A stretch of 64,000 bases of DNA from contig JAZSIR010000001.1 of NCBI GenBank assembly GCA_045533905.1, forward strand, positions 64,001 through 128,000, given 5' to 3'. Source of the DNA: Clostridia bacterium (GTDB lineage Bacteria; Bacillota; Clostridia; UMGS1883; UMGS1540). Below are positions 2,444-63,419 of this stretch, one piece after another. The notes beneath the pieces were generated by a model. That model was not told the origin of the DNA and did not search any database. It saw only the letters and a list, made by a program, of their open reading frames with translations. The stretch's first letter is position 1; every line of letters starts with the position of its first letter. The position numbers and the translations under genes are program-made.

Positions 2444-3634
2444 TTAATCCGTAAGGTTATCAAAATAGCCCTGTACCAAAACAATCGGCGTGCCCTTATC
2501 GCCCGAGCCGCTCGTAAGGTCGCACAAGGAACCGATAAGGTCTGTAAGGCGACGCGGCGTAGTCCCCTGCGAGGCCATATTCCCGACAAGGTCGCCATCT
2601 TTTTTACGGATAGCATCGGCGATGGCATCGTTTAAGGCCTTGCCGGAAAGATTTGCAAAATCATTGTCGGCAAGATACTTGAGCTTCAGCTCGTTCGGCG
2701 TACCTTCAAGCCCCTTTGTATAGGCGGGCGACACAACCGGGTCGGCAAGCTCCCAGATTTTTCCGATCGGATCACGGAATGCACCGTCCCCGTACACCAT
2801 AACCTCTACACGCTTGCCGCTTGCGGCATACAGCTTTTCCTGGATAGTGTCTACAAGAGCAAAGCACTCCTGCGGGAAGAGCTTTACTGTGTCTTCCGTG
2901 GATTTATTCGAGCCTAAAAGCCCGTATCTTTCGTTAAAGCCGCTGCCGTCTACGGAAGTGTTCATAATTTCATCCAGGCCCAGAACCCGTTTGGCGCCTG
3001 CCGCAAGGAGGATGCGCTTTGTGCGGGCACGGGAGTGAATGTCGCAGTTTAAAACTGTATCGGTATAGCGAAGGATTACACGCGGGTCATTGGCCAGAAG
3101 GATTTCCACCTCGGCGCCGCACGCGCGGATGAGGTCTCCGTAGTAGCGGACATAATCCACACCCGTGAAAGGATGGGGATTTTCGCCAAAGAGCTCTCTG
3201 TATTTTTCTTCAGTCAGAACATCCGAATAGGGATTAATGCCGGCTTCATCAAGCTGGTCAAGCGAAACGAGTGCATTGCCGACCTCGTCGCTCGGATAGT
3301 TGAGCATCAGCACAATCTTCTTTGCGCCCTTTGCAATGCCGCGAAGGCAGATGGCGAAACGGTTACGGCTGAGAATCGGGAAGATAACGCCAATGGTTTC
3401 ACCGCCGAGCTTTGTCTTTACATCCTTTGCGATCGCTTCCACGGAAGCATAATTGCCCTGCGCGCGGGCTACGACGGATTCGGTTACGGCAACCACATCA
3501 CGGTCACGAAGAGCAAAGCCTTCGGATTCAGCCGCTTCCAAAACGCTATTTACAACGATAGAGGCAATATCATCACCCTCGCGGATAATCGGGCAACGGA
3601 CACCTCTTGAAACTGTACCAATTTTTCTTTCCAT
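2444..3634 (-). CDS. coenzyme F420-0:L-glutamate ligase (CofE)-like family protein
   Basis: N-terminal GVRCPIIREGDD…VVAVTESVVARAQG and C-terminal DLIGSLCDLTSGSGDKGTPIVLVQGY are typical of CofE-like proteins; RBS GGAGG before MERK. Confidence 0.8.
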   Translation of the reverse strand: MERKIGTVSRGVRCPIIREGDDIASIVVNSVLEAAESEGFALRDRDVVAVTESVVARAQGNYASVEAIAKDVKTKLGGETIGVIFPILSRNRFAICLRGIAKGAKKIVLMLNYPSDEVGNALVSLDQLDEAGINPYSDVLTEEKYRELFGENPHPFTGVDYVRYYGDLIRACGAEVEILLANDPRVILRYTDTVLNCDIHSRARTKRILLAAGAKRVLGLDEIMNTSVDGSGFNERYGLLGSNKSTEDTVKLFPQECFALVDTIQEKLYAASGKRVEVMVYGDGAFRDPIGKIWELADPVVSPAYTKGLEGTPNELKLKYLADNDFANLSGKALNDAIADAIRKKDGDLVGNMASQGTTPRRLTDLIGSLCDLTSGSGDKGTPIVLVQGYFDNLTD

Positions 3635-22231: not shown

Positions 22232-22426
22232 TCATATGCATATAAATCTTTTACTTCTGCATACATCATTTTTGAAAAGCTCTGCTCTTATAAACCGATA
22301 CAGTTTAGACCGCAAGCCTTGCGCCGGCGACCATAATATATATGTACCGGAATAAACGGAAATGGCATTTGCCATATCTGCCGCCAGATATACGCCTGCG
22401 GCACCGCTCCATCCGAAATAGACATC
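22232..22426 (-). pseudogene. 3' remnant of a serine hydrolase (beta-lactamase-like) gene
   Basis: Frame reads DVYFGWSGAAGVYLAADMANAISVYSG…LRSKLYRFIRAEL; the FGWSGA motif parallels that of the intact gene at 25954; no start codon, cut off at repeat site A (22427). Confidence 0.6.
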
Positions 22427-22469
22427 CTTTATATAAAGACTGTATAATCTGGATGCCGGTCTTTTTAGC
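22427..22469 (+). repeat. site A copy 1 (putative recombination site)
   Basis: 22427-22457 is identical to 24530-24560 (31 bp); 22431-22469 matches 40505-40543 at 35/39; internal AAAGAC…GTCTTT dyad. Confidence 0.85.
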
Positions 22470-22502
22470 TGCGGTTGTTACTACAACCACATTAGGTGTA
22501 AA

Positions 22503-24506
22503 CTATAGTTTGCCCAATATTTTTATTGCATAATATAACGCCCAGTCCTGATCGTTCGCAAAGCTATCATATTTATGACCTGATGCGACACCCGGTCTCA
22601 TATGTGCGTTCTCATATCCTGCTACGGAAGAATACTGCATTACCTTATACGGAACCAGATATCCGGCAGAAGCAAAACCATTTTCGAAATAAACGCAAAG
22701 ATTGTTCTTTACTACAGCCTCCGCATACTCCCTATACGCACTTTCAAATCCACACTTATATAGGAAATCATATGTTTCAGCAGACAATGCACATAGCCAT
22801 TGGGGCATAGTATCACCATAAGTTTTGCTTTTCCCAAACCAATACAAATCCCAGTAGCGAACAGCATTCATATTTACGTGATAATCAGGTTGCCTTGCAA
22901 AAAACGCATTTGATTTTTCGATGAATCCTGGTGCCATTTCAAGATATTTTTTATCACCTGAAAGCATATATGCCTGACACAAAATATTCACTTTGCCATT
23001 GAACATAAACTGCGTACATTTCACTTCTTCAGAAAAACATTTACTGCCGTCTCTTATAATTCTTTCTGCGTGAACAAGGGTATGATGTATAAGTCTTTCC
23101 CTGAGTTCATGCAAGCCTTCTGCCTGAAGTAATTCGCATATTTCGTATGTTCTTATGCATGGGGATTCCTGCTCTCCTCCCCGTACCTTTTCATAATACG
23201 AAACCATAGTACGCGCAGAAATTTCAAGACATTCCTTTTCTTTTGTAAGCAAATACCATTCAAGATAATACACAGCCATCCACGGATAATTATATGCACG
23301 CTTCCATTTATCATCGCGATTTACGCCGTTGTATACGGTTGCAGTGTCTTTATCAAAAATTTCCCTTTCAATGAACCTTCGGTGTTTAATCAAGGATTTC
23401 ATCATAGTTTCATCGTATCTTTTTTGCAAAGCCTGTGCCACTACAACCCCCATTGACAATCTTTCACGGCACGCATTGTTGTCCTGAAAACACTCATCAT
23501 AATATAGCTTGTCTGTGTCTCTGTCATAAATAAGGTATGCACCGTCAAGACAACTCCCCGATCTGTGATATTGTTGTTTTGTTGTGATAAACTCAGCTCT
23601 TTTTATAACAATTTCATCAAGCGGTAATAATATATTTATTTTTAACCATAATAATTTACCATTTACCGACAAATAAATCGTTCTTTCTCCAGGAGTCTTG
23701 AAGGAATGTGTCCATTTTGCTTTGTTTCCGAATTTAGTGTACTTTATTTCTTTATCTTCACATACAATTTTCAAATCATCCCAACAATCAAGACTATCAA
23801 ACTCGCATTCAACAGCTTCGTCTATAAAAGCACTGTATTTATTTGCAATTATTTTCATCCTGGAAAACTCATTCAATATTCCCTCGTCCGGAGCTATATT
23901 GTCGAAACGAAATACAAATGACAAAGTTATACTTTCTCCCGGTGCAACTACAATATCACCCGGATGCAACACTATATCACCACGGTAACTCGCGCCTACC
24001 TTTACGCGGCTCACATCGTAGCTGATGCTGTAATCAGCTATTCCTCCTTTGACTATGTTACATACAAGGTAAGGTTTTATACCGCTCGGTTTCGCTGAAT
24101 ACATCCACGCGCCATCTCCACCACACCAGACGTGTGTTATGCACGAATTATTATGCAAATTGGTTTTGTTCTCAAATGTACAGTTATAAGGAAAGTGTAT
24201 TCCCAGATTATCTTTTGTAAAAAAGTATTCAGAGCAATTATTATTTGTTATGCAGTAGCACTCTGTATATATCCCGTTTTTTACTCTTTTATTAACACAT
24301 AATTCGAGCGATTGATTTTCCGAATACACATCAATACCATCTTCTGCATTCATTACCCGATAATTCTCAAAGCCGATAACCTTTCCCCAATCTGAATTTT
24401 CTAAAATCCAGTTAAATCCATATTCATCATCCGGATTATATATCGCTGTGGTATAGCCATTAACTTCATCGAATGCAACACAAATTTTACCATCATTATA
24501 CTTCAT
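22503..24506 (-). CDS. uncharacterised six-hairpin-glycosidase-like protein
   Basis: 667 aa; RERLSMG, RAYNYPW, RYWDLYWFGK…GDTMP and ANDQDWAL motifs resemble an (alpha/alpha)6 glycosidase-like family. Confidence 0.6.
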   Translation of the reverse strand: MKYNDGKICVAFDEVNGYTTAIYNPDDEYGFNWILENSDWGKVIGFENYRVMNAEDGIDVYSENQSLELCVNKRVKNGIYTECYCITNNNCSEYFFTKDNLGIHFPYNCTFENKTNLHNNSCITHVWCGGDGAWMYSAKPSGIKPYLVCNIVKGGIADYSISYDVSRVKVGASYRGDIVLHPGDIVVAPGESITLSFVFRFDNIAPDEGILNEFSRMKIIANKYSAFIDEAVECEFDSLDCWDDLKIVCEDKEIKYTKFGNKAKWTHSFKTPGERTIYLSVNGKLLWLKINILLPLDEIVIKRAEFITTKQQYHRSGSCLDGAYLIYDRDTDKLYYDECFQDNNACRERLSMGVVVAQALQKRYDETMMKSLIKHRRFIEREIFDKDTATVYNGVNRDDKWKRAYNYPWMAVYYLEWYLLTKEKECLEISARTMVSYYEKVRGGEQESPCIRTYEICELLQAEGLHELRERLIHHTLVHAERIIRDGSKCFSEEVKCTQFMFNGKVNILCQAYMLSGDKKYLEMAPGFIEKSNAFFARQPDYHVNMNAVRYWDLYWFGKSKTYGDTMPQWLCALSAETYDFLYKCGFESAYREYAEAVVKNNLCVYFENGFASAGYLVPYKVMQYSSVAGYENAHMRPGVASGHKYDSFANDQDWALYYAIKILGKL

Positions 24507-24529
24507 ATCTATACACTCCTTTTGAAATT

Positions 24530-24560
24530 CTTTATATAAAGACTGTATAATCTGGATGCC
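24530..24560 (+). repeat. site A copy 2
   Basis: ctttatataaagactgtataatctggatgcc, identical to 22427-22457. Confidence 0.9.
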
Positions 24561-24573
24561 ACTTTTTATGTTT

Positions 24574-24600
24574 ATTGCGACACATAAGGTTTAGATGCAA
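24574..24600 (+). repeat. site B copy 1
   Basis: attgcgacacataaggtttagatgcaa; 25/27 identical to 25102-25128 and to 25146-25172. Confidence 0.85.
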
Positions 24601-24619
24601 CTTTTCAAAGGCTCCCTTG

Positions 24620-24669
24620 AGGCTCCCTTGTGTAAAGGGAGCTGTCAGCGAAGCTGACTGAGGGATTGT
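24620..24669. repeat. REP-like double hairpin, left of DUF559
   Basis: gctccctt-gtgt-aaagggagc and gtcagc-gaa-gctgac stems; inverted homolog at 25016-25069. Confidence 0.7.
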
Positions 24670-25013
24670 TTCACTACATTATCTATAAACATACAAACTC
24701 CATCAAAGTTTTTCAAAACATCAAGATTTGATATTCGGATAACTTTTATCCCATATTGTTCTAAATAAGCAGTTCTTTTTTCATCATTGAAAAGCCCGTC
24801 ATCTTCGTAGTGTTGCGAACCATCTAACTCTATAACAACATTTGCTTTTGCGCAATAGAAGTCTGCTATATATTTACCTAACACCTTTTGCCTTGTAAAC
24901 TTTATAGGATAACTTCTTAAAAAATCATACCAAAGATGTCTTTCTTCTTTAGTCATATTTTTTCTAAGTTCCTTTGCAAATGGAACTATTTTATTATTAT
25001 GTTTTCTATCCAT
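24645..25013 (-). CDS. DUF559 / Vsr-like endonuclease domain protein
   Basis: AKELRKNMTKEERHLW, FTRQ…YIADFYC…IELDGSQH, DEKRT…GIKVIRISN. Confidence 0.92.
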   Translation of the reverse strand: MDRKHNNKIVPFAKELRKNMTKEERHLWYDFLRSYPIKFTRQKVLGKYIADFYCAKANVVIELDGSQHYEDDGLFNDEKRTAYLEQYGIKVIRISNLDVLKNFDGVCMFIDNVVKQSLSQLR

Positions 25014-25015
25014 TT

Positions 25016-25069
25016 ACAACCCCTCCGAGTTTGCTTCGCAAACTCACCTCCCCTTGCACAGGGGAGGCT
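25016..25069. repeat. REP-like double hairpin, right of DUF559
   Basis: gagtttgc-ttc-gcaaactc and cctcccct-tgcac-aggggagg stems. Confidence 0.7.
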
Positions 25070-25077
25070 TTTTCCTT

Positions 25078-25094
25078 TTCGTCATATTTCGACA
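25078..25094 (-). promoter_or_regulatory. tandem Spo0A (0A)-box-like motifs
   Basis: TGTCGAA-ata-TGACGAA on the minus strand, 10-bp period. Confidence 0.5.
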
Positions 25095-25101
25095 TCTTTA
25101 C

Positions 25102-25172
25102 ATTGCGAGGCATAAGGTTTAGATGCAAGTCTTTTTAGCATAGCGAATGCGACATATAAGGTTTAGATGCAA
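25102..25172 (+). repeat. site B copies 2 and 3 (tandem)
   Basis: attgcgaggcataaggtttagatgcaa (25102-25128) and aatgcgacatataaggtttagatgcaa (25146-25172); copy 2 continues gtctttttagc, as site A does. Confidence 0.85.
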
Positions 25173-25219
25173 ACCTTTTTGGTGGCTGTTAATATCAAGA
25201 CATATAAATAAATTGGAAT

Positions 25220-25870
25220 TTACTTAACTGCCTTTAGCGTATAAGTTGCTCCCCAATGGTTCAAAACTTCGACCGCAGAAAACCCTGCTTCAAGTAATGC
25301 TTCCGTTTCATGCTTTACGGTAAGAGGTGTATCGTAATGATAGAATTCATCATCACAAATACCTTGTTCTGCTTTCAATGCTGACAAATTCCGTCTGTGC
25401 ATCTGTTCTTCTTCATCGGATAATGAAAAATAATCCGTAAGGATAAAACATCCCTTATCCTTTATTGCCGTATGTAGTTTAGAGTATAACGCAATCTTTG
25501 CTTCTTTTCTGAAATGATGCAGACTCTCCACCGATACCGCTGCATCGAATACGTTCTCGCCCAAAGGCACATTAAAATACGAGCCGAGTATCAAGGTTAT
25601 ATCCTTGCCCACGAATTTACGCTTGAGTTCGGCTAACATTCCTTGCGAGAGGTCAATTCCTGTAACCTTTGCTAACGGATTCTGCGTATAGTATTCTTGA
25701 AGTTCTAATCCCGTGCCACAGCCCAAATCAAGCACGTGGCAGTTTTCAGTGGTCGGCAATTGTTTTGCTGTAAAGGGATAGAATTCGTTTGCGGATTCGA
25801 TGTTGGTCATCATATGCTCATCGTATCCATCAAGTCTTGCTTCAAAAAAATCGCTCATTTTTTCAAGCAT
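25220..25870 (-). CDS. class I SAM-dependent methyltransferase
   Basis: VLDLGCGTG, GIDLSQGML, FDAAVSVESLHH. Confidence 0.92.
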   Translation of the reverse strand: MLEKMSDFFEARLDGYDEHMMTNIESANEFYPFTAKQLPTTENCHVLDLGCGTGLELQEYYTQNPLAKVTGIDLSQGMLAELKRKFVGKDITLILGSYFNVPLGENVFDAAVSVESLHHFRKEAKIALYSKLHTAIKDKGCFILTDYFSLSDEEEQMHRRNLSALKAEQGICDDEFYHYDTPLTVKHETEALLEAGFSAVEVLNHWGATYTLKAVK

Positions 25871-25901
25871 ACATAACCTCCTACAAATTCTTATTTATCT
25901 G

Positions 25902-25918
25902 TTCGACATTTTTCGACA
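25902..25918 (-). promoter_or_regulatory. tandem Spo0A (0A)-box-like motifs
   Basis: TGTCGAA-aaa-TGTCGAA on the minus strand upstream of the methyltransferase. Confidence 0.55.
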
Positions 25919-25953
25919 TATCAATAATACTTGCGTTAAGTTAATGGCAAAAA

Positions 25954-27078
25954 TCAATATATCATTGCATTAAATACAGCCTCTTCAAATCGACGTGCTG
26001 AACTATTTCCTGCTCCTCCATCAAATCTGGAGTTTTTCATAAATACTGCGCAAATATCATTTTTAGGATCTACCCAAAAGTGAGATCCATAAGCTCCACT
26101 CCACCCAAAACTTCCAACAGATAAATGCGGATATTCCTCATCCGTGATAACACGCACACCTAACCCCCATTTTTGATAGCCCGGCATAATTTTTTCCGAC
26201 ACATAGGCTTTTGAAAGCTTGTTGATTGCCTGTTCAGATACAATTCGATTATTGTTTATTTCCCCTTTATTTAAAAGCATTTGTGCAAAGTTTGAATAAT
26301 CATCTAGTGTGGACACCAATCCGGCACCTGCAAGCCTGTGTTCACAAGGAAATCTTTCAAACACACACCCGGAATAAGTTATACCAATATCATTTTTTTC
26401 ATCAACTTTGTTATGCATCATCATAAGCTGTTTCCATTGTTTTTCCGTTGGTGAAAAAGTTGTGTTTAACATATTGCACGGAACAAAAATTTCATTTTTC
26501 AAAAAAGTTTCATAGTCTTGTTTTGTTACATATTCAACAATCGCCGCAAGCACATCAAAAGCGGCAAACGCACTATATGCTTGCTTTGTAAATGGTTCAA
26601 AATCCAGTCCTGCGTTTATATAACACTTTACTGTATTTGAAATAGTTTCCCTATCATCCTCAGACATAGCAATAATCTTATCACTACCAAATCCGGATGT
26701 ATGTGTCAAGCAATGTAAAATTGTTACCGGTGTTTTTGTTTTTCCTAAATCTGCGCCATCGGAAGTTATAACATGTATATCTTCAAATTCAGGGATATAT
26801 TTACTAACAGGTTCATCAAGAGAAATCAATCCTCTATCAACCAAAATCAGTATTGCCACTGCTGTTATTGGTTTTGTCATCGAAGCAAGACGATATATCG
26901 TGGTGTCATCCACCTGTTCTTTACCATCAATGCTTGTATGCCCAAAATGTTTCTTCAATACCACTTCGCCATTCTGATATACAAAATAAGATGATCCAAA
27001 CAAATTATTGTTTGTTAAATCAAATGTTGCAATTTTCTCAACATTGTGTTTGAGTTTTTCTTTGTTCAACAGTCTCAT
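25954..27078 (-). CDS. serine hydrolase, beta-lactamase/esterase family
   Basis: SxxK motif (LASMTKP), LTHTSG, FGWSGAYG. Confidence 0.9.
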   Translation of the reverse strand: MRLLNKEKLKHNVEKIATFDLTNNNLFGSSYFVYQNGEVVLKKHFGHTSIDGKEQVDDTTIYRLASMTKPITAVAILILVDRGLISLDEPVSKYIPEFEDIHVITSDGADLGKTKTPVTILHCLTHTSGFGSDKIIAMSEDDRETISNTVKCYINAGLDFEPFTKQAYSAFAAFDVLAAIVEYVTKQDYETFLKNEIFVPCNMLNTTFSPTEKQWKQLMMMHNKVDEKNDIGITYSGCVFERFPCEHRLAGAGLVSTLDDYSNFAQMLLNKGEINNNRIVSEQAINKLSKAYVSEKIMPGYQKWGLGVRVITDEEYPHLSVGSFGWSGAYGSHFWVDPKNDICAVFMKNSRFDGGAGNSSARRFEEAVFNAMIY

Positions 27079-27181
27079 GTTTTGTTTCTCCTTTTATTTA
27101 CTAAAAAATGTTGTTAATAGTTCATATAAACTTATGTCTAAAAAATGTATAAACAAATTTTAAGTTATCTCCGGACATCTA

Positions 27182-28030
27182 TCAATACAGCCCCACATCC
27201 ACAAAAACCGGCGAATGATCAGACAAAGGTAGGTAATAATCCGGGGTATACCGTTCAAAACGATGCACAAAACCTGCCGGTGAAAATTTCACCATAATAT
27301 GATCTATTCCTTTTTCAAACGGTGCTCTCACATAAGGCTTGTAGCCATCGCCAAAACAATAGTGGTAGCCCCAATCCTGGTCAGCAAAATCCGTGGCAAT
27401 ATCGTGGGCGTGTGCATAACCTCTGCTTAGCGCATTTTGAATTACAGAGCTTGTGTATCTTGCGTTAAAATCGCCCACCAAAACCACAGGACAGTTGTAT
27501 ATGTTATGAAATTTCTCCAGACGGTCCATTGCCATGTTCAGTTGGTAAACTCTCGCCTCATCAGAACCTGCCTGATAGTTTTTTGAATCAGAACTACCAC
27601 TCATCCACCAAAGATGGGTAGTCATAAAAACAAGCTTTTTCCCGTCTGTTTTATCTTGAAACACAGCACAGCACCATGATTTTGTTCCGTTGTTGTTGAA
27701 TTCGCCATCCCAGCCCGGAACTTCCGTAGGGTACATCAAAAAATCAGAATCCAACAGCTCCAGTCGCTCCTGACGATACAGTACCGGAGTATCTTTACCC
27801 CACAGCAAGGCATAACAATACCCCTGCTCCAACAGCCCCTGAATAATATGATCAGACATAACATGTGACATTTCTTGGAAACCAATGATGTCGGGCTGTG
27901 TATCAGCATAAACCCGTACCATCCCCTTTGCCCTTGCAATCGCAGAACAATCTTCTCCTTTTATTTCCCATGCAGGGAGATTGTTGTCACACTTCCAAAC
28001 ATTGTGACTCATAATACGCAACTTCCCCAT
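27182..28030 (-). CDS. endonuclease/exonuclease/phosphatase (EEP) family protein
   Basis: IMSHNV, PDIIGFQE, VLVGDFN, IDHI, LSDHSPV. Confidence 0.9.
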   Translation of the reverse strand: MGKLRIMSHNVWKCDNNLPAWEIKGEDCSAIARAKGMVRVYADTQPDIIGFQEMSHVMSDHIIQGLLEQGYCYALLWGKDTPVLYRQERLELLDSDFLMYPTEVPGWDGEFNNNGTKSWCCAVFQDKTDGKKLVFMTTHLWWMSGSSDSKNYQAGSDEARVYQLNMAMDRLEKFHNIYNCPVVLVGDFNARYTSSVIQNALSRGYAHAHDIATDFADQDWGYHYCFGDGYKPYVRAPFEKGIDHIMVKFSPAGFVHRFERYTPDYYLPLSDHSPVFVDVGLY

Positions 28031-28110
28031 AAAAATTCCTCCAATAATTTTTTGATATGTGTAAAAAAACACTTTGACTTTCAATATATTTTGATATATT
28101 CACTCTATAA

Positions 28111-28124
28111 ACTCGTGTTAAGTC
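28111..28124 (+). repeat. site D (ACTCGTGTCAAGTC family)
   Basis: actcgtgttaagtc, 13/14 match to 61993-62006. Confidence 0.6.
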
Positions 28125-28258
28125 AAAAGCGAAAAACATTACCGTTCTGCATCTTCATTAAGTGTTTCAATATAAAAACTTGTCCTTCTTTCAAATCTCA
28201 CGTATGCTCAATCGGATTTTCGTATATAATTCGTGGCCGATTCAGTTGCGGGCACTTC

Positions 28259-30283
28259 TCAGCTAATAACAGCTTTTTTCAAAACAACAACTCCATAAGG
28301 TTTTATCATTTCTTCTTCGAAATTGCCGCTTATAATTTCATAACCGGCTGGCAAATTCACCTTCTTTTCCTCATTATTGAAATTCATAATAAAAATGTAA
28401 TTATTGTTTGAGGAATAGCGCATTGTTACGCTTACATTTTCAGGCGTTTCGAAAACCTTATCAGCTGATATAATGTCCTTAAGCCATTCTTTATACAATT
28501 TTATATACCCATCAGTCATTAAATCCGTAGCTATGTAATATGCCTTACCTTTGCCATATTCATTTACTGTTACGGCAGGCATATCTTTATAAAAATCTTC
28601 ACAGTATTTTCCTATTACCGTCGCTCCTTCGAGGTATGCAAGCTCGCAATATTTCTCACTTCGGTATGACGTACCAAACATTTTGACAAAATTATACTGA
28701 CCGTCATACAGCGAATCCGTTTCCTCCGTCTTTACACCAAGTAATTTTCGCAAAGGATAACACTCTTTATCAAAAAAGCTCAGACCATATTCATCCACAA
28801 CGCCTGTTCCGAAAGTGGTTACAAAAATCCCGCCGTTTTTTACATAATCCTCGATTTTTTCTTTCAGACCATTTTTTAACATAAAAAGCATCGGTGCAAT
28901 GACAACTTTATATTTCGAGAAATCGTCATTTTCAAAAACAAAATCACAGCCTATATTAAGCTGCCACAATGCTCCGTAGTTTTTCATAAGAGTATCTGAA
29001 TATCCTTTATCCTCGTCTATATTTCTGTATGCCTGCGAAATTCTCAAACTCCAGAAACTGTCGTAATCGAACAGAATCGCCACTTCATTTCGTGTAAGTG
29101 AACTTGCAATTTCTCCAATGTTTTTGAGCTCTTCTCCCACCTCTGCAACTTCTCTGAATACTCTCGTATCCTCACTGTTATCATGCCCGACAACAGCACC
29201 GTGGAACTGCTCGGACTGGCCTCTGCTTTTTCTCCACTGGAAATACTGAACGGTATTGCTGCCATGAGCAACCGCCTGCATCGATGCCAAAAGGTGCATG
29301 CCCGGGCGTCTTAACCTTGAAACCGCCTGCCAGTTTGTTGCAGAAGGTGAGCTTTCCATCAACATAAACGGCTTATCCTTTTTAAATGAGTTGAACAGCG
29401 AATGAAACAATGCAGTTTCAGCTGCCTCTTTGTATTCGTTATCACTTGAATGCCATGCCGGGTAATTATCCCAAGATATAACATCTATGCTTTTTGAAAG
29501 CTTGGCATAGTCAATTTCCCAGAATCTCATAAAATTCGTCGTAACGGGAATATCCGGATTTATTCTCTTTACTGCAGCTGCTTCGCAGTCAAGAAAATCC
29601 TGCAGCATAGAATTTTTAAACCTGACCCACTCCAGTTTAAGAGGATTGGAAGAATTTTCTCCGTGTTGCCCCGGAGGCTCAATCTGCGAAAAGCTCTGAT
29701 ATGTATGCGACCAAAACCCATTCCACCATTTTTCATTAAGGCTATCTATGGTTTTATACTTATTTTCAAGCCATTTTCTGAAATTTTCACAGCACAACGG
29801 GCAATGGCAATCCCGTACATTATATTCATTGGAAATATGCCACATCAAAATACCCGGATGATTTGAATATCTTTCAGCAAGCTTTGTGTTGATTATTCTC
29901 ACTTTTTCTCTGTATACAGGCGATGAATAGCAGTTGTTGTGACGGTTTCCGAATCTGTCTCTTATTCCGTCCTCCTGCACACGTTTTACTTCCGGATATT
30001 TTTCAGCCATCCATGCAGGCATTGCACCGGACGGTGTCGCAAGTATTGTATATATACCGTTTTCATAAAGAGTATCTATAATTTTATCAAGCCATTCGAA
30101 TTCAAAAACGCCTTCCTTCGGCTCAAGCCTGGACCATGCAAAAATCCCTACCGACATAACATTACAGCCGGACTTTTTCATCAGCTCAATATCCTTTTCA
30201 AGAACTTCAGGATAACTGAGCCATTGGTCAGGGTTATAATCACAACCGTGCCATATACCTCTTAATTTTTGATTAATGTTCAT
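28259..30283 (-). CDS. beta-galactosidase, GH42
   Basis: GCDYNPDQW, GIFAWSRLEP, WHISNEY, LMESSP, YFQWRKSRG…EQFHGAV. Confidence 0.93.
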   Translation of the reverse strand: MNINQKLRGIWHGCDYNPDQWLSYPEVLEKDIELMKKSGCNVMSVGIFAWSRLEPKEGVFEFEWLDKIIDTLYENGIYTILATPSGAMPAWMAEKYPEVKRVQEDGIRDRFGNRHNNCYSSPVYREKVRIINTKLAERYSNHPGILMWHISNEYNVRDCHCPLCCENFRKWLENKYKTIDSLNEKWWNGFWSHTYQSFSQIEPPGQHGENSSNPLKLEWVRFKNSMLQDFLDCEAAAVKRINPDIPVTTNFMRFWEIDYAKLSKSIDVISWDNYPAWHSSDNEYKEAAETALFHSLFNSFKKDKPFMLMESSPSATNWQAVSRLRRPGMHLLASMQAVAHGSNTVQYFQWRKSRGQSEQFHGAVVGHDNSEDTRVFREVAEVGEELKNIGEIASSLTRNEVAILFDYDSFWSLRISQAYRNIDEDKGYSDTLMKNYGALWQLNIGCDFVFENDDFSKYKVVIAPMLFMLKNGLKEKIEDYVKNGGIFVTTFGTGVVDEYGLSFFDKECYPLRKLLGVKTEETDSLYDGQYNFVKMFGTSYRSEKYCELAYLEGATVIGKYCEDFYKDMPAVTVNEYGKGKAYYIATDLMTDGYIKLYKEWLKDIISADKVFETPENVSVTMRYSSNNNYIFIMNFNNEEKKVNLPAGYEIISGNFEEEMIKPYGVVVLKKAVIS

Positions 30284-30368
30284 AAGTAGCACCTCATCCT
30301 ATTATTTATAAATATGTTTTATGTAATTAAGCGACAACTACGTCACCATAAATTCTCGTTGCCGTAAG

Positions 30369-30382
30369 TCTCTTATCAAGTC
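30369..30382 (+). repeat. site D, degenerate, at the right edge of island 1
   Basis: tctcttatcaagtc, 11/14 match. Confidence 0.45.
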
Positions 30383-30407
30383 AAGAGCAAAATCTAACTG
30401 CCCCAAA

Positions 30408-40504: not shown

Positions 40505-40543
40505 ATATAAAGACTGTATAATCTAGATGACAATCTTTTTAGC
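40505..40543 (+). repeat. site A copy 3, at the left edge of island 2
   Basis: atataaagactgtataatctagatgacaatctttttagc, 35/39 match to 22431-22469. Confidence 0.85.
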
Positions 40544-40547
40544 AAGA

Positions 40548-40770
40548 TTTCGTGTCAAGTCAGGCGAACAGTGAATAATAGGACCTACTACTTTTCCCTT
40601 AAATTTTCACTGTATTTTTTCTGAACAAAATCCATCAGAACCCGCAGGAATGTTAAATTTTCCTGCTCCGATAGTATATGTAAATATTTAAAATCGGCAA
40701 ACTACCATATTTAATTATATTGATTTGCACAAGCAAAAACATAATAGAATAACCTACCATGTTTGCAAAA
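40548..40770. repeat. conserved non-coding module, copy 1
   Basis: Collinear homology with 61993-62300; hairpin gcaggaa…ttcctgc at 40644-40666. Confidence 0.8.
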
Positions 40771-40787
40771 AAATACGTTTTTTGAAG

Positions 40788-42533
40788 TTATACGGCTCCT
40801 AAATCAGGTTTATCAACAAACAAAACCTCTTGTTTTCCCTTTATGCCATCTGATTCAAATAAAACTATTTCATTTTCTCCTTTTTTTAATACCGAAGCGG
40901 GAACATACAAGGTTTTCTGCGGTCCTTTGTCCCAATATCTGCCAAGATTAAAACCATTTATCATTACAAAACCTTTAGTAAAATTTTCTGTATTTAAGAA
41001 TGTATCGCATGGAACATCAACTTCAAACACTCCTCTATAAAACGCAGATGGTTCTTCCACTACATCTTTGGAATACAAAACATGGTCTATATTCTCCATA
41101 GGCAATGGATACACATCCCAGTTGAAATGAATTTTTCCATTTAGCATACATCTGCCGGCTATACCTTTTTTACGACTCATTTTAGGTCCAAAATTTGTTC
41201 TGCCCATATTTTCACAAAGAACTGTGAGCACATCCCCACGACTTGCTGTAATCTCAATTTTTAATTCTTCATCATTTATATAAACAATCCCAACAAGGTT
41301 TCTATTAATATAAATCTGTGCTCTGTCACCAAGACTTTCAAACTCTAATTTTGCACCTTTATAATCACGATTCAACCGTGTGCAATATGCAACATATCCA
41401 TATCCTTGTCCGTATTTTTCCATACACTTGGGAACTTCAGAATGTATTGGAGAAGAAAGTCTTTCTAGATTATCAAAAATACCTCCTACTTCCGTAAGCT
41501 CTACCTTTCCGTATTCTTTTTTAGGTCTGTTCGGCGGAACTTCCGGAAGAACTCCGTCAATATATTTTTTCACCACATCACGGACTGCATAATATTTAGG
41601 AGTAACATCTCCACATTCAGATAATAGTGCATCATAATCATAACTTGTCACATCAGGAGCAAACTTTTCATAATGATTTGCTCCGCTTGTAAATCCAAAA
41701 TTTGTTCCACCTATGAACATATACATATTGAGGCTTCCCTTTTTAAGCATATCTTCTACAACTTCTGCATACTTTTCTGCAGATGTGCAATGATGTTTTT
41801 CATCTCCCCAGGCATCAAACCAACCACACCACATTTCCATACACATTTTAGGCGCATCGGGAAAAAGTTCATCATGAGCCATAAAATTTTCTTCAACACG
41901 ACTGCCGAAATTAAGCGTAGCAAAGCAACCTTCTATCATTCCGTCTAAAAGGCTTTCTTTTGAACTGCCATCTGAAGTAAAAAGTGGAATGTCTATTTCC
42001 TGTTCCCGGTAAAAATCACACAAATACTTAAGATATTCCTTATCGTCACCATAGTAACCATATTCGTTTTCACACTGCATCATTATAACAGGGCCACCAT
42101 TTGTACACAGATACGGTCTTACCTCGTCAAATAGCTTCTTAAGATAATTGCTGAAACACTTTATATAATACGGATTGGAACAACGTATTTCCATTTCTTC
42201 ATTTTCCTGTATCCACCAGGGCAATCCGCCGAATTCCCATTCCGCGCAGATATATGGTCCCGGGCGTACGATAACCATAAGTCCCTCTTCACCTGCTTTT
42301 TTGATAAAATCTGATATATTGAGATTTCCTGAAAAATCAAATTCTCCTTGCTTTTTTTCATGCATATTCCATGCGCAGTATGTTTCAACACAGTTACAAC
42401 CCAAGGCTTTCATTTTTTTGAAAATATCAGTCCATGTGTCAGACATATTGCGGAAATAATGTACAGCACCTGATATTATCTTTATAGGTTTCCCATCCCT
42501 ATAAAACTGATTACCTTTAATCTCAAAAACCAT
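40788..42533 (-). CDS. beta-galactosidase, GH35
   Basis: ISGAVHYFR, RPGPYICAEWEFGGLP, QCENEYG, MEMWCGWF, YMFIGGTNFG, TSYDYDA, GPQKTLYVP. Confidence 0.95.
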   Translation of the reverse strand: MVFEIKGNQFYRDGKPIKIISGAVHYFRNMSDTWTDIFKKMKALGCNCVETYCAWNMHEKKQGEFDFSGNLNISDFIKKAGEEGLMVIVRPGPYICAEWEFGGLPWWIQENEEMEIRCSNPYYIKCFSNYLKKLFDEVRPYLCTNGGPVIMMQCENEYGYYGDDKEYLKYLCDFYREQEIDIPLFTSDGSSKESLLDGMIEGCFATLNFGSRVEENFMAHDELFPDAPKMCMEMWCGWFDAWGDEKHHCTSAEKYAEVVEDMLKKGSLNMYMFIGGTNFGFTSGANHYEKFAPDVTSYDYDALLSECGDVTPKYYAVRDVVKKYIDGVLPEVPPNRPKKEYGKVELTEVGGIFDNLERLSSPIHSEVPKCMEKYGQGYGYVAYCTRLNRDYKGAKLEFESLGDRAQIYINRNLVGIVYINDEELKIEITASRGDVLTVLCENMGRTNFGPKMSRKKGIAGRCMLNGKIHFNWDVYPLPMENIDHVLYSKDVVEEPSAFYRGVFEVDVPCDTFLNTENFTKGFVMINGFNLGRYWDKGPQKTLYVPASVLKKGENEIVLFESDGIKGKQEVLFVDKPDLGAV

Positions 42534-42599
42534 AATTTTGTCTCCTATCTTAAATCAACTATCATTTCAAATATTAAAATTTAACATAACTCACTCTTG

Positions 42600-42617
42600 G
42601 CTCATGTCAATTCAGGA
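42600..42617 (+). repeat. site D upstream of GH35
   Basis: gctcatgtcaattcagga, 15/18 match to actcgtgtcaagtcagga. Confidence 0.55.
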
Positions 42618-42670
42618 GTAAAAAATCATATAATCATTATTCAAAAGTTATCGTTTACAAGCTATTCAAA

Positions 42671-43177
42671 TTACACGATTTCTATTTGCACTGCCTTCAT
42701 AGCCTCAAGTGCTGTTTTGTGACTTTCGACACTAACTCCTGCACAGCACTTGCCATCAACAACTATTTTTGTTTCAGGAAAGCTCGCTTTTAATATCATA
42801 GCGTTTGAAATTACGCAAATATCTGTACACAATCCGCACAATTCTATTTCATCTATCTCATCGCCATAATCTTTCAGTATTCCTGGCAAATCGACACTTC
42901 CAAATGTAATTTTATTAACAACATCATTAGCATAAGCCTTAAGTTCATCACAAATCTGCCAACCATCAGTATCTTTAATACAATGCTCTACCGGAAGATT
43001 TTTGCCTTCCTGTGTCTTCATATAGTCTTCAAAATGTGTATCTCTTGTAAATATAATTTTACCATCAAAATTTTTAACCTTTTCAACTACATCCGGCACA
43101 ATTTTCTCAGCAAGCACACTACCCAGACTGCCTGTTATAAAATCATTTTGCATATCAACTACAATTAAATACTTCAT
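42671..43177 (-). CDS. isochorismatase/nicotinamidase family cysteine hydrolase
   Basis: VVDMQNDF, TRDTH, HC, K…GLCTDICV. Confidence 0.92.
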   Translation of the reverse strand: MKYLIVVDMQNDFITGSLGSVLAEKIVPDVVEKVKNFDGKIIFTRDTHFEDYMKTQEGKNLPVEHCIKDTDGWQICDELKAYANDVVNKITFGSVDLPGILKDYGDEIDEIELCGLCTDICVISNAMILKASFPETKIVVDGKCCAGVSVESHKTALEAMKAVQIEIV

Positions 43178-43273
43178 TTTCTTCTCTCCTTTTTAGGATA
43201 TAATCCGAGTTATCCAAACATCAAGTTACGAATAAAATCCAAGAAACGTATTCTGTATACGGGCAGGAAGTCT

Positions 43274-51548: not shown

Positions 51549-51661
51549 TTTTTTGCCTCCCAAAGTATATTTTTTTAATTTAACATAGTAAAAGCCACCT
51601 TGGCTTTCAAGGCGGCTCCGGATCCTTTGCATTAAAACAGCAATGCACTGACTGCTATTCC

Positions 51662-51840
51662 TTGCTCCGTCCTTTTGCCTGAGAGATTAGCCCGTAAAGA
51701 GCTTTACACCTTCGGCATCCTTTTGGCTTCTCTAAAGAAGCCGGACTTCTCCGGAGTGCTATCCACGTGCAGTCTCTACTAAAAGCGCCTGAGAGCATTA
51801 CTCCTTCGGCAAGGCTAACGCCTTTCTCCTGCACACTTCA
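51662..51840 (-). ncRNA. tandem glycine riboswitch
   Basis: Two aptamers on the minus strand: GCAGGAGA…CCGAAGGAG…CTCTCAGGC and CCGGAGA…CCGAAGG…CTCTCAGGCAAAAGGACGGAG; upstream of the AGCS gene. Confidence 0.88.
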
Positions 51841-61992: not shown

Positions 61993-62300
61993 ACTCGTGT
62001 CAAGTCAGGAGAACAGTGAATAATAAGAACCATCACGAAATATAACGAAATCAAAGATTTCTATATTTCGGAGAACCTTGATACTCGCAAGCTCGTATTA
62101 GGACCTACTAACTTTTCCCTATTTTTTCAACTGTTTTTCTTTTAACACTTTTCCTTAGAACCCGCGAGAATACTGGATTTTCTCGCTCCCGATAGTATAT
62201 ATAAATATTTAAAATCGTCAAACTAATCTTTTAAATTGTATGGACTTGACACGAGTAATTCTATTCCCAAACAACATAACCGTACCTTTGTTTCAAATAC
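61993..62300. repeat. conserved non-coding module, copy 2, with 14-bp inverted D sites
   Basis: actcgtgtcaagtc (61993-62006) and gacttgacacgagt (62243-62256) are perfect inverted repeats; homologous to 40548-40770, with a 75-nt insertion at 62026-62100. Confidence 0.85.
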
Positions 62301-62325
62301 CCTTGTTTCCCTTTAAAACAGGTCA

Positions 62326-63009
62326 TTACTCTGCAATTTTTAAGCCATCATTAAAATAATCTATAATTTGTTGTTCGTATTTTACAATATCTAACTCAGG
62401 TGATAGTTCAATAACTCTTGAGTATGAGTCAATAGATGAACTATTTAATTCGTAAATGCCATCATTTAAGTATTCCTGTAAAAGTTGGGATAATGTTTGA
62501 TACATATGCGTTAATTCACCATGAAGAACAACACCTACTTGCCATGCTTCATCTTCAGGAATATTAGAAAGTATACCATCTAGCTTTTGATCATACAAAT
62601 ATATTTGAGTAAGATACAAATTTATATTTTCATCGAAAAGAAACCGATTTTGAGAAGTAAACTGATGAAATTTAGTTGCCCATTCTCCAAATGTATTATG
62701 ATCTTTTAAAATAGTACAACAACTACTAACTGAACCATTATATCCAACTAAATTTTGTGCCAAATCAGATTCATTTGTTTGAAACACCAATATTGGCTCT
62801 TGAACAATTTCTAACAATTCAGTAGTTACATCAATCTTTTTTTCAGCAACTTTTGCTCTTAATTTTATTTGTTCGACTTTTTTTGTACTGTTAATATCAA
62901 TGATATCAGCTATATAAAAGCCAAGAAAAAGTTCTATAATAATAAGCATACAAGAAATTGTAACCTTAAAAATTTTACTATTAGCCAGAATTTCAACTAT
63001 CTTTCTCAT
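62326..63009 (-). CDS. hypothetical AT-rich membrane-anchored protein
   Basis: 227-aa ORF with an N-terminal TM segment and AAGGAG RBS; passenger gene of island 3. Confidence 0.7.
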   Translation of the reverse strand: MRKIVEILANSKIFKVTISCMLIIIELFLGFYIADIIDINSTKKVEQIKLRAKVAEKKIDVTTELLEIVQEPILVFQTNESDLAQNLVGYNGSVSSCCTILKDHNTFGEWATKFHQFTSQNRFLFDENINLYLTQIYLYDQKLDGILSNIPEDEAWQVGVVLHGELTHMYQTLSQLLQEYLNDGIYELNSSSIDSYSRVIELSPELDIVKYEQQIIDYFNDGLKIAE

Positions 63010-63052
63010 CAGTTATTTCTCCTTTTTCTTCTGAAATTTACTCTCAACATTT

Positions 63053-63084
63053 TTCGACACAATTCGACTTTTGTCAAGTCGGGA
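63053..63084 (-). promoter_or_regulatory. site D (TTGACA) overlapping tandem 0A-box-like motifs
   Basis: acttttgtcaagtcggga (63067-63084, 15/18 match to D); minus strand AGTCGAA-ttg-TGTCGAA at 63053-63069. Confidence 0.5.
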
Positions 63085-63092
63085 CTAAAAAA

Positions 63093-63419
63093 CTACTCGT
63101 TTTCCGCATCTTCATCCAGTGCTTCGAGGTAAAAACTTACGGGTCTAAATCCGTCATTGCACGAAATCATAGCCGATTTGGGGTTTTTCATCCATCCGTC
63201 GTAGAAATTCTGACCGCCATGCGCCAAAGCCATCACAAAAGGAGACATGCTTTCCCAAGCACTGTTACAAAGTCCATGAGGTTTTTCCCAGCCGTTTGCA
63301 ATAAAGACTTGTCCTTCGCTTAAATCACAGGCGTGTTCTATTGGGTTTTCATATTTTTCTATCAAATCATCATACCGTGCCATTCGGACTACGGTAATTT
63401 TACATTTCTTCATACCCAT
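63093..63419 (-). CDS. TIGR04076 family protein
   Basis: KCKITV, HAC…GQVF, PHGLCNSAW, SCNDGFRPVSF. Confidence 0.85.
   Translation of the reverse strand: MGMKKCKITVVRMARYDDLIEKYENPIEHACDLSEGQVFIANGWEKPHGLCNSAWESMSPFVMALAHGGQNFYDGWMKNPKSAMISCNDGFRPVSFYLEALDEDAENE

Follow-up and report, generated by a model that had tools for sequence, protein, structure and literature searches.

What holds six unrelated genes together in one AT-rich island of a Clostridia genome, and what are the short repeats between them? The question is raised by positions 22427-30390 of the window analysed here, a stretch of 64,000 nucleotides from the Clostridia bacterium assembly GCA_045533905.1 (contig JAZSIR010000001.1, positions 64,001 to 128,000). 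As an original prediction made from these letters had noted, the genes are co-oriented, all on the minus strand, and code for a protein of 667 amino acids (aa), a DUF559 protein, a methyltransferase, a serine hydrolase, an EEP-family protein and a GH42 enzyme; the GC content of the island is 0.34-0.42, against about 0.49 in the background. The prediction held that repeats of four classes (A to D) bracket the genes in pairs and that the genes are acquired one at a time, as cassettes, by site-specific recombination at one hotspot. According to our analysis, we can say with high confidence that the island consists of mobile single-gene cassettes arranged in an array. Rather than forming paired brackets, sites A, B and D each close the preceding unit at its 3′ end, and the following unit begins some 7 nt ahead of a TGTCGAA motif. 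The array likely takes part in an integron-like trading of genes, run by a transposase encoded elsewhere. Its features are as follows (PWM, position weight matrix; runs are public animal-gut sequencing runs).

22432-22466, minus strand: site A (tip 22432), where the 667-aa unit ends on its 3′ side and the array meets the region upstream of a YeiH-family gene
22503-24506, minus strand: 667-aa cargo gene, no Pfam match
24535-24610, minus strand: B (24574-24610) followed by A (24535-24569), stacked at the end of the DUF559 unit
24620-25070, minus strand: DUF559 element, gene at 24645-25013 with inverted hairpin arms
25078-25101, minus strand: cassette start, 7 nt and then TGTCGAA at 25094, second copy at 25084
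25102-25182, minus strand: two B sites; B 25146 closes the methyltransferase unit; in run X5, B 25102 and its linker come directly after the serine hydrolase D site
25208-25222, plus strand: C site 3′ of the methyltransferase stop codon, inner inverted pair with 25884-25898
25220-25870, minus strand: class I SAM methyltransferase, cargo
25884-25925, minus strand: cassette start (TGTCGAA at 25918 and 25908), then the 5′ C site
25926-25956, minus strand: D site closing the serine hydrolase unit (PWM core 25929-25956, breakpoint 25926)
25954-27078, minus strand: beta-lactamase-fold serine hydrolase, cargo; unit 25926-27117
27118-27145, minus strand: degenerate D-like site closing the EEP unit; contig breakpoint 27117-27123
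27153-27170, plus strand: C-like copy within the EEP unit, no boundary
27182-28084, minus strand: EEP-family gene, cargo; unit 27117-28109
28110-28138, minus strand: D site, breakpoint 28105-28109 in 6 of 8 runs
28145-28225, minus strand: remnant from the family of the 108-aa gene at 63093-63419, lying after the GH42 stop codon and ahead of D
28259-30292, minus strand: GH42 beta-galactosidase, cargo
30369-30396, minus strand: leading degenerate D, just after the stop codon of a GC-normal cyclase gene

The repeats lie where the original prediction had placed them. The A copies at 22427 and 24530 are identical over 31/31 bp, the B copies at 24574 and 25102 agree at 25/27 positions (a third B stands at 25146), the inverted C pair at 12/15 and the direct C pair at 15/18, while D occurs at 28111 and 30369; A and D recur at 40.5 kb and D at 62 kb. 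It is the pairing of each gene with brackets of its own that fails, as the same cassette is found after A in one genome and after D or B in another. The serine hydrolase, thought to lie between direct C sites, is bounded by the D at 25929-25956 and by the degenerate D-like site at about 27118-27145, which scores under a relaxed PWM cut and was placed from contig breakpoints and reading by eye; the C at 27153 forms no boundary. That same C copy (27153-27170), taken as one border of the EEP gene, lies inside the EEP unit, and contigs holding the unit continue through it to 27117. B sites do lie on both sides of DUF559, but the hairpin arms of the element (24620-24670 and 25015-25070) are inside that interval and B ends the preceding unit. 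An inverted C pair does surround the methyltransferase, but as what looks like an inner system in a unit that ends at B. The D sites about GH42 are also present, but the 108-aa-family remnant, 76-81% similar to 63102-63354, stands between the GH42 stop codon and D.

In regard to the movement of these units, the clearest evidence comes from cassettes shared between genomes. Three of them lie behind D in one genome and behind A in another, at 99.6% (L084/L085), 97.7% (L005/L122) and 97.4% (L042/L091) identity, with all ends at most 4 nt from a site tip; junction letters were read for L055/L084 and L042/L091. The isochorismatase unit of a second array in the window (listed below) is 97.7% identical to a unit in a genome of another family. 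When shared segments of at least 90% identity were compared (29 pairs), 37 of the 58 ends fell within 12 nt of a site tip, as against 14.6% of random intergenic positions, so that the breaks of shared segments track the sites. Since A, B and D have no homology at the junction, homologous recombination fails to explain these joins at the same base.

Within the island itself, contigs from eight animal-gut runs show breakpoints at 25926, 27117 and 28109. Contigs with the EEP unit leave the window at 28105-28109 in six runs and at 27117 in three. In run X5 the serine hydrolase is placed after a B site, and the 16 letters after its D site equal window positions 25130-25145, the linker of the second B, with the methyltransferase unit absent; in runs X8 and X11 a joint of 25925 to 27117 omits the serine hydrolase. 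The 5′ edge of GH42 lies outside these breakpoint data, and outside support for the A/A boundaries of the 667-aa unit consists of one partial contig. As for strain-level presence or absence at the island, the best runs hold at most a quarter of the words, with the flanks barely covered.

The anatomy of the units is regular across loci. Along the direction of the genes, a site stands directly 3′ of a stop codon or a hairpin repeat and directly 5′ of the next ribosome-binding site. Segments shorter than 3.5 kb that lie between sites number 205, with a single gene in 142 of them and no gene in 37; genes between sites are co-oriented with them in 186 of 197 cases, and A/B sites on both strands were found at 0 of 192 loci. 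Stacked sites follow the order D, B, A (DA 63, BA 20, DB 20, DBA 10, AA 1, BB 1), the reversed order being absent, with an end-to-end spacing of mostly 43-44 for DA and DB and 39-40 for BA. From tip to TGTCGAA the distance is 7 in 79/103 A and 17/25 B sites with the motif, which is absent within range at 117 A and 40 B sites and is often repeated 10 nt downstream. Where a start seems to lack a site upstream, a decayed D precedes it in most cases. A and B are unlike in the outer 18 bp and have a box at bp 19-28 in common (7-8/10). At L020:7400-7461 (the end of G024 C13), two palindromic copies of this box lie 25 bp apart at the contig end, upstream of a D-B-A stack.

Scanned with the PWMs, the host genome holds 24 sites (6 A, 5 B, 13 D), compared with 1 in the reversed genome. 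Flanking GC is at most 0.40 at 23 of the 24, compared with 16% of 575 intergenic gaps; the flanks are AT-rich and core regions are avoided. Neither of the two outcomes that the original prediction named as speaking against it, sites equally common upstream of core genes and strain-level indel breakpoints away from the sites, was seen. The sites fall into five clusters: the movement of units with breakpoints at sites agrees with the predicted acquisition of cassettes, but a single hotspot is not supported. The only site outside AT-rich DNA, at G000 C17:54400-54600, is a lone A accompanied by a hairpin repeat but by no cargo gene, with a GC-normal gene on either side. The A pattern is present in 33/87 genomes of the order and 58/401 of the class, with 0 control matches, and an exact scan of GTDB contigs gave an estimated ~250 stretches, nearly all titled as Clostridia metagenome-assembled genomes (MAGs); these are sample counts, in which kin are non-independent and MAGs incomplete. 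In plasmids and phages site matches were at chance level or absent, and viral contigs gave 1 B and 0 A.

A search in relatives for the empty site of the main island failed, as gene order is not kept: the YeiH orthologues of three relatives (G004, G007, G013) have different neighbours and no site nearby. The YeiH-family gene, which forms the GC-normal flank of the main array, is itself a cassette in L055, L084 and L085, at 99.5% identity across three genomes, two of which are short contigs titled Alphaproteobacteria and possibly misbinned.

Site D also exists in a long form of 180-260 bp with inverted ends, present in 43/87 genomes of the order and positioned right after stop codons, as attC is. 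An autonomous form was sought in 20 regions, all of which proved to carry ordinary cargo. This long element appears in both other arrays of the window:

40505-43240, minus strand: second array, with A at 40505, D at 40548 with a partial long element, a GH35 gene, D at 42600, the isochorismatase unit and a D-like site at about 43214-43240
61993-63419, minus strand: third array, with a 260-bp long D element with inverted ends (61995-62255), a 227-aa open reading frame (ORF), D at 63067 and a 108-aa ORF

What could move such cassettes? A first indication comes from the A junctions. On the strand opposite the genes, the start motif and A together give a -35 box, 18 nt and a -10 box in 82 of 220 A sites, 62 of which read exactly TCGACA and TATAAT. 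Two of these junctions lie in the island:

22419-22448, plus strand: promoter-like junction at A 22432, 11/12 consensus, 18-nt spacer, -10 within A, pointing back into the upstream cassette (consensus match only)
24522-24551, plus strand: second promoter-like junction at A, 11/12 consensus

Judged from the letters, the A junction may be a promoter laid out as the circle junction of IS256. According to PMC7780238, that junction has its -35 in the right tip (bp 1-6) and its -10 in the left end (bp 12-17), spacers are 5-8 bp long, the attack falls at a constant distance from a recipient end that is bound more loosely, and end variation is greatest in the outer 14 bp. A split junction promoter with a 5-8 bp spacer would appear to be present here as well, while terminal inverted repeats with TGTAAA are not (0/192 loci with inverted A/B). 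Compared with real IS256 ends, taken from plasmid record L357, A matches the left end in register at 14/17 positions, and 12/14 positions agree between the left end of the long D element and the IS256 right end, the sole such place in the host genome. According to the available part of PMC9333248, IS30 inserts adjacent to its own ends.

The promoter layout, the likeness to IS256 ends and the box common to A and B thus favour a copy-out DDE transposase acting in trans. A cassette extends from 7 nt before TGTCGAA to the tip of its 3′ end site A, B or D. According to the proposed model, its mover is a transposase of the IS256/Mutator type whose gene lies elsewhere, and this enzyme would attach the tip of one end beside another end instead of inserting it into random DNA, as IS30 does. 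To a mover of this type we give a little less than even chances, and the full explanation, a cassette array moved in trans by such an enzyme, is proposed still more tentatively.

Several points weigh against this account. Concerning the array, the PWMs were trained on fetched loci that also served in the pair comparisons; 8 of the 29 pairs are one cassette, and 21 of the 58 ends lie away from tips. The X8/X11 joint is seen in one contig per run, has a 24-letter side at 90% likeness and belongs to a flagged joint class; X6 and X8 also hold contigs that pass from the serine hydrolase to the methyltransferase start as in the window, an X11 contig departs at 25959, before D, and flanking core genes are barely covered, so the breakpoint contigs probably derive from other hosts and not from strains of the host genome. 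From D core to TGTCGAA the distance is 15 nt in 19/30, with the D tip ambiguous. The 7-nt spacer has a consensus, unlike random flank, and the start end lacks an A/B box. A single inverted A/B-like end was seen (L031:1337, G031 C3). That end stands just after D and faces a downstream B two genes on, which makes a cassette with a true inverted pair. Concerning the mover, the likeness of A to IS256 was noticed post hoc, from recall; a 14/17 match is reached by 7 unrelated positions of the host genome, and the -10 hexamer accounts for 6 of the 14 matches, so that A and IS256 may be alike through convergence on a promoter. The IS256 subterminal motif TGTAAA is not common to A (1-2/9 at bp 18-26), and no target duplication was found in 23 candidate starts checked by eye, most after a decayed D and with no true empty site.

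The search for the enzyme adds to these points. No element with A/B/D ends was found among the families searched in site-positive genomes. IS256-family genes occur in 11/80 of these genomes (19 loci) and ISLre2-type genes in 3/80, with no A/B at the ends of the fetched loci, and the same holds for 30 loci of rve-type genes, which are present in 45/80; the ends of IS30 (8/80 genomes, 13 loci) do not match A, B or D, and IS110 (14/80, 23 loci) shows no recombinase gene between A/B/D ends, one IS110 contig having an A 1.9 kb away with two genes between. The host genome has no IS256, ISLre2, IS30, rve-type or IS110 genes. Nor did it give an IS1595, IS630, IS91, IS110 or reverse transcriptase match, apart from one broken Y1 remnant, and IS91 (3/87 genomes), IS1595 (2/87), IS630 (0/6) and IS200 (5/6) had no site at fetched loci. 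IS21, ISL3, IS1182, IS1634, IS66 and relaxases stood outside the searches with own models. MAGs often lose multi-copy elements. Among ORFs near sites (239 cluster representatives of 346 ORFs against Pfam at E 1e-6 and 1e-8, and 136 of a further 190 ORFs against NCBIfam at E 1e-15), the serine recombinase of L217 was the only hit. A 384-aa ORF between two A sites with a recombinase-like motif turned out to be a BNR-repeat protein, and serine recombinases near L020 and L027 appear to be separate elements. No enzyme adjoins the array, as predicted, and there is no recombinase among the neighbours in the window.

Instead of a transposase, a conservative site-specific recombinase could act in trans, either an IntI-like tyrosine recombinase tolerant of heterology or a serine recombinase that needs no more than a 2-bp core. 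In that case A, B and D would serve as alternative left half-sites, and the right half-site would be the start motif. This is a close rival, even if we consider it rather unlikely; the junction layout suits a copy-out DDE transposase no less well. The lack of duplication in the 23 starts would suit it, as would the A junction, a palindrome centred on TA (A ends AT|A in 214/220 sites, an ending that the pattern itself favours); B, however, does not end in TA, and covariation around A, B and D gave no complementary pairs among the top pairs. The exchange between run X5 and the window is reciprocal at the D junction. The long D element, following stop codons like attC, folds back on its ends better than 200/200 shuffles (z -3.7), but its left end is no more complementary to its own cassette start than to the right flank (mean 3.5/5 each, 23 cases), so the hallmark of attC is missing. 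Candidate enzymes are at hand, as the host genome has five tyrosine and four serine recombinase genes and a D to A segment at an array head (L217:3090-7738, G077 C103) carries a large serine recombinase and a recombinase-domain ORF. Yet L217 is 1 locus among several hundred, none of the five tyrosine genes lies at an array, and none of 25 tyrosine recombinase loci carries A or B. IntI (TIGR02249) stayed below cut-off in all 87 order genomes, and also in 14/14 controls, so that this search has no positive control.

Two of the five tyrosine recombinases are labelled XerC and XerD, from our own reading of sequence and context and not from a family call. Another gene of this type, of 281 aa (G000 C11:2158-3003), has a C-like site upstream (1737) and a dif-like inverted repeat with a 6-bp centre downstream (3240-3270).

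An HUH enzyme (a relaxase, a rolling-circle Rep or one of the IS91/IS200 type) that nicks the gene strand at the sites and peels off single-stranded circles from site to site is improbable in our estimation. The conserved bases 5′ of the junction, the fixed orientation and the lack of duplication in the starts checked agree with it, as do hairpin repeats as frequent cargo and the 37/205 segments without a gene; D also contains a short motif that we take to resemble rolling-circle nick sites. Still, the IS91-type genes of 3/87 genomes have no site at their ends, the Y1 loci of 4/5 site-rich genomes show none, and neither plasmids and phages (no real match) nor viral contigs (1 B, 0 A) point to such a carrier. 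Least probable is a reading in which promoters or operators, copied from one accessory gene to another, make up the repeats and ordinary homologous recombination between them swaps the genes. In its favour, A junctions come near to the promoter consensus and no dedicated enzyme was found. Against it, the promoter faces away from the gene that follows, one and the same cassette joins A, B or D at the same base without homology there, stack order and spacing are strict, and sites avoid core genes.

The DUF559 element is a separately mobile element riding as cargo; its hairpin arms are of a type widespread without A/B/D sites. The left arm opens with a 10-bp tandem duplication (window 24610-24630), and similar short duplications adjoin B in L158 and L175. 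The C pair around the methyltransferase is kept in a homologue without any A/B/D site, so C looks like an inner, separate system; strict C matches number 4 in the host genome and 0 in the control. At G000 C13:113976-115980, a row of small AT-rich genes is parted by C-type sites with no A/B/D, which suggests a second cassette system. As a lead, the 667-aa gene resembles six-hairpin glycosidase clusters in the Atlas; its relatives are 33-46% identical and sit in GC-rich loci without A/B/D sites, and none of the 10 distant homologues whose contexts were inspected had a site. An Rfam scan of the window gave a single match, outside the island: a glycine riboswitch aptamer at 51657-51764, upstream of a sodium:alanine symporter.

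Taken further, gut Clostridia could possess a cassette-exchange network that arose independently of integrons, in which an undescribed enzyme, borne by elements that are rare or escape assembly, would accept any of three end classes in place of another, append further end tags in a set order and carry carbohydrate, detoxification and toxin-antitoxin genes from one bacterial family to another; we regard this broader view as possible, with more doubt than confidence. Site A alone is present in about 1/7 of the class genomes sampled, and cassettes cross family lines at identities of at least 97%. Judged by Pfam label, genes carried as cargo code for glycoside hydrolases, esterases and methyltransferases, others are of toxin-antitoxin or defence type, and some are homologous to the aminoglycoside and chloramphenicol acetyltransferase families. 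Site-adjacent genes at L107:1769-2563 and L192:1781-2419 have Pfam matches to aminoglycoside 3-N-acetyltransferase and chloramphenicol acetyltransferase. If the view is correct, a large part of the AT-rich single genes that lie scattered in uncultured gut Clostridia would be one shared, addressable pool, and an integron analogue would have been found in a group in which our search gave no IntI, with defined tips that make the circle junction and the enzyme testable. An enzyme able to join short ends with neither homology nor a duplication would be a candidate tool as well. To the original prediction our analysis adds a corrected map of the units, the finding that three end classes interchange and stack, the contig breakpoints in the island and the layout of the junction promoter; in the literature searched (mostly open-access texts, supplements excluded), no description of the A/B/D sites was found.

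When compared with integrons and CALIN arrays, as presented in the available part of PMC8618304, the island is alike in its head-to-tail, co-oriented, mostly single-gene units, each with a 3′ site and with no nearby integrase, and in the exchange of units among distant hosts of one habitat. It differs in having no IntI and, as the original prediction recognized, no RYYYAAC/GTTRRRY ends; A, B and D measure 25-30 bp and show no covarying hairpin, their three classes are stacked in one set order, the arrays are short and lie scattered, and the junction promoter faces backwards. The long D element does fold, but with other ends and without complementarity to the start, in a comparison that used no attC covariance model. 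Mobile insertion cassettes and miniature inverted-repeat transposable elements, known in general as non-autonomous units with passenger genes moved in trans, share the inverted ends of long D, but most genes here have no matching inverted pair around them, and neither a duplication nor an autonomous partner was found in the starts and loci checked. Like pdif modules, the inner C pair brackets its gene in inverted orientation, whereas A, B and D are direct and no dif-like match was established; the dif scan was loose and gave no clear chromosomal dif for comparison with the C pair.

Among transposases, the p-MULT3, ISLre2 and TnGBS elements insert, according to the part of PMC3942029 available, at a distance of 15-17 bp on the upstream side of a sigmaA -35 and duplicate 8-9 bp; here neither feature fits cleanly, and the ends do not match. 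IS30 resembles the present system in that end-targeted joining builds head-to-tail junctions (PMC9333248, in part), although its spacer is 2 bp as against 7 here and the ends of host IS30 do not match A, B or D. Unlike IS256, the cassettes have no transposase gene and no TGTAAA box, no 8-bp duplication was seen in the starts checked, their ends are unequal and insertion is almost only at existing ends. In common with IS256/ISCth4, as far as the portions of PMC7780238 and PMC5065196 at hand describe them, are a -35 at one tip and a -10 at bp 12-17 of the other, the short fixed spacer and ends that vary outside a subterminal box, and both A and the long D end would seem, in their letters, to resemble IS256 tips.

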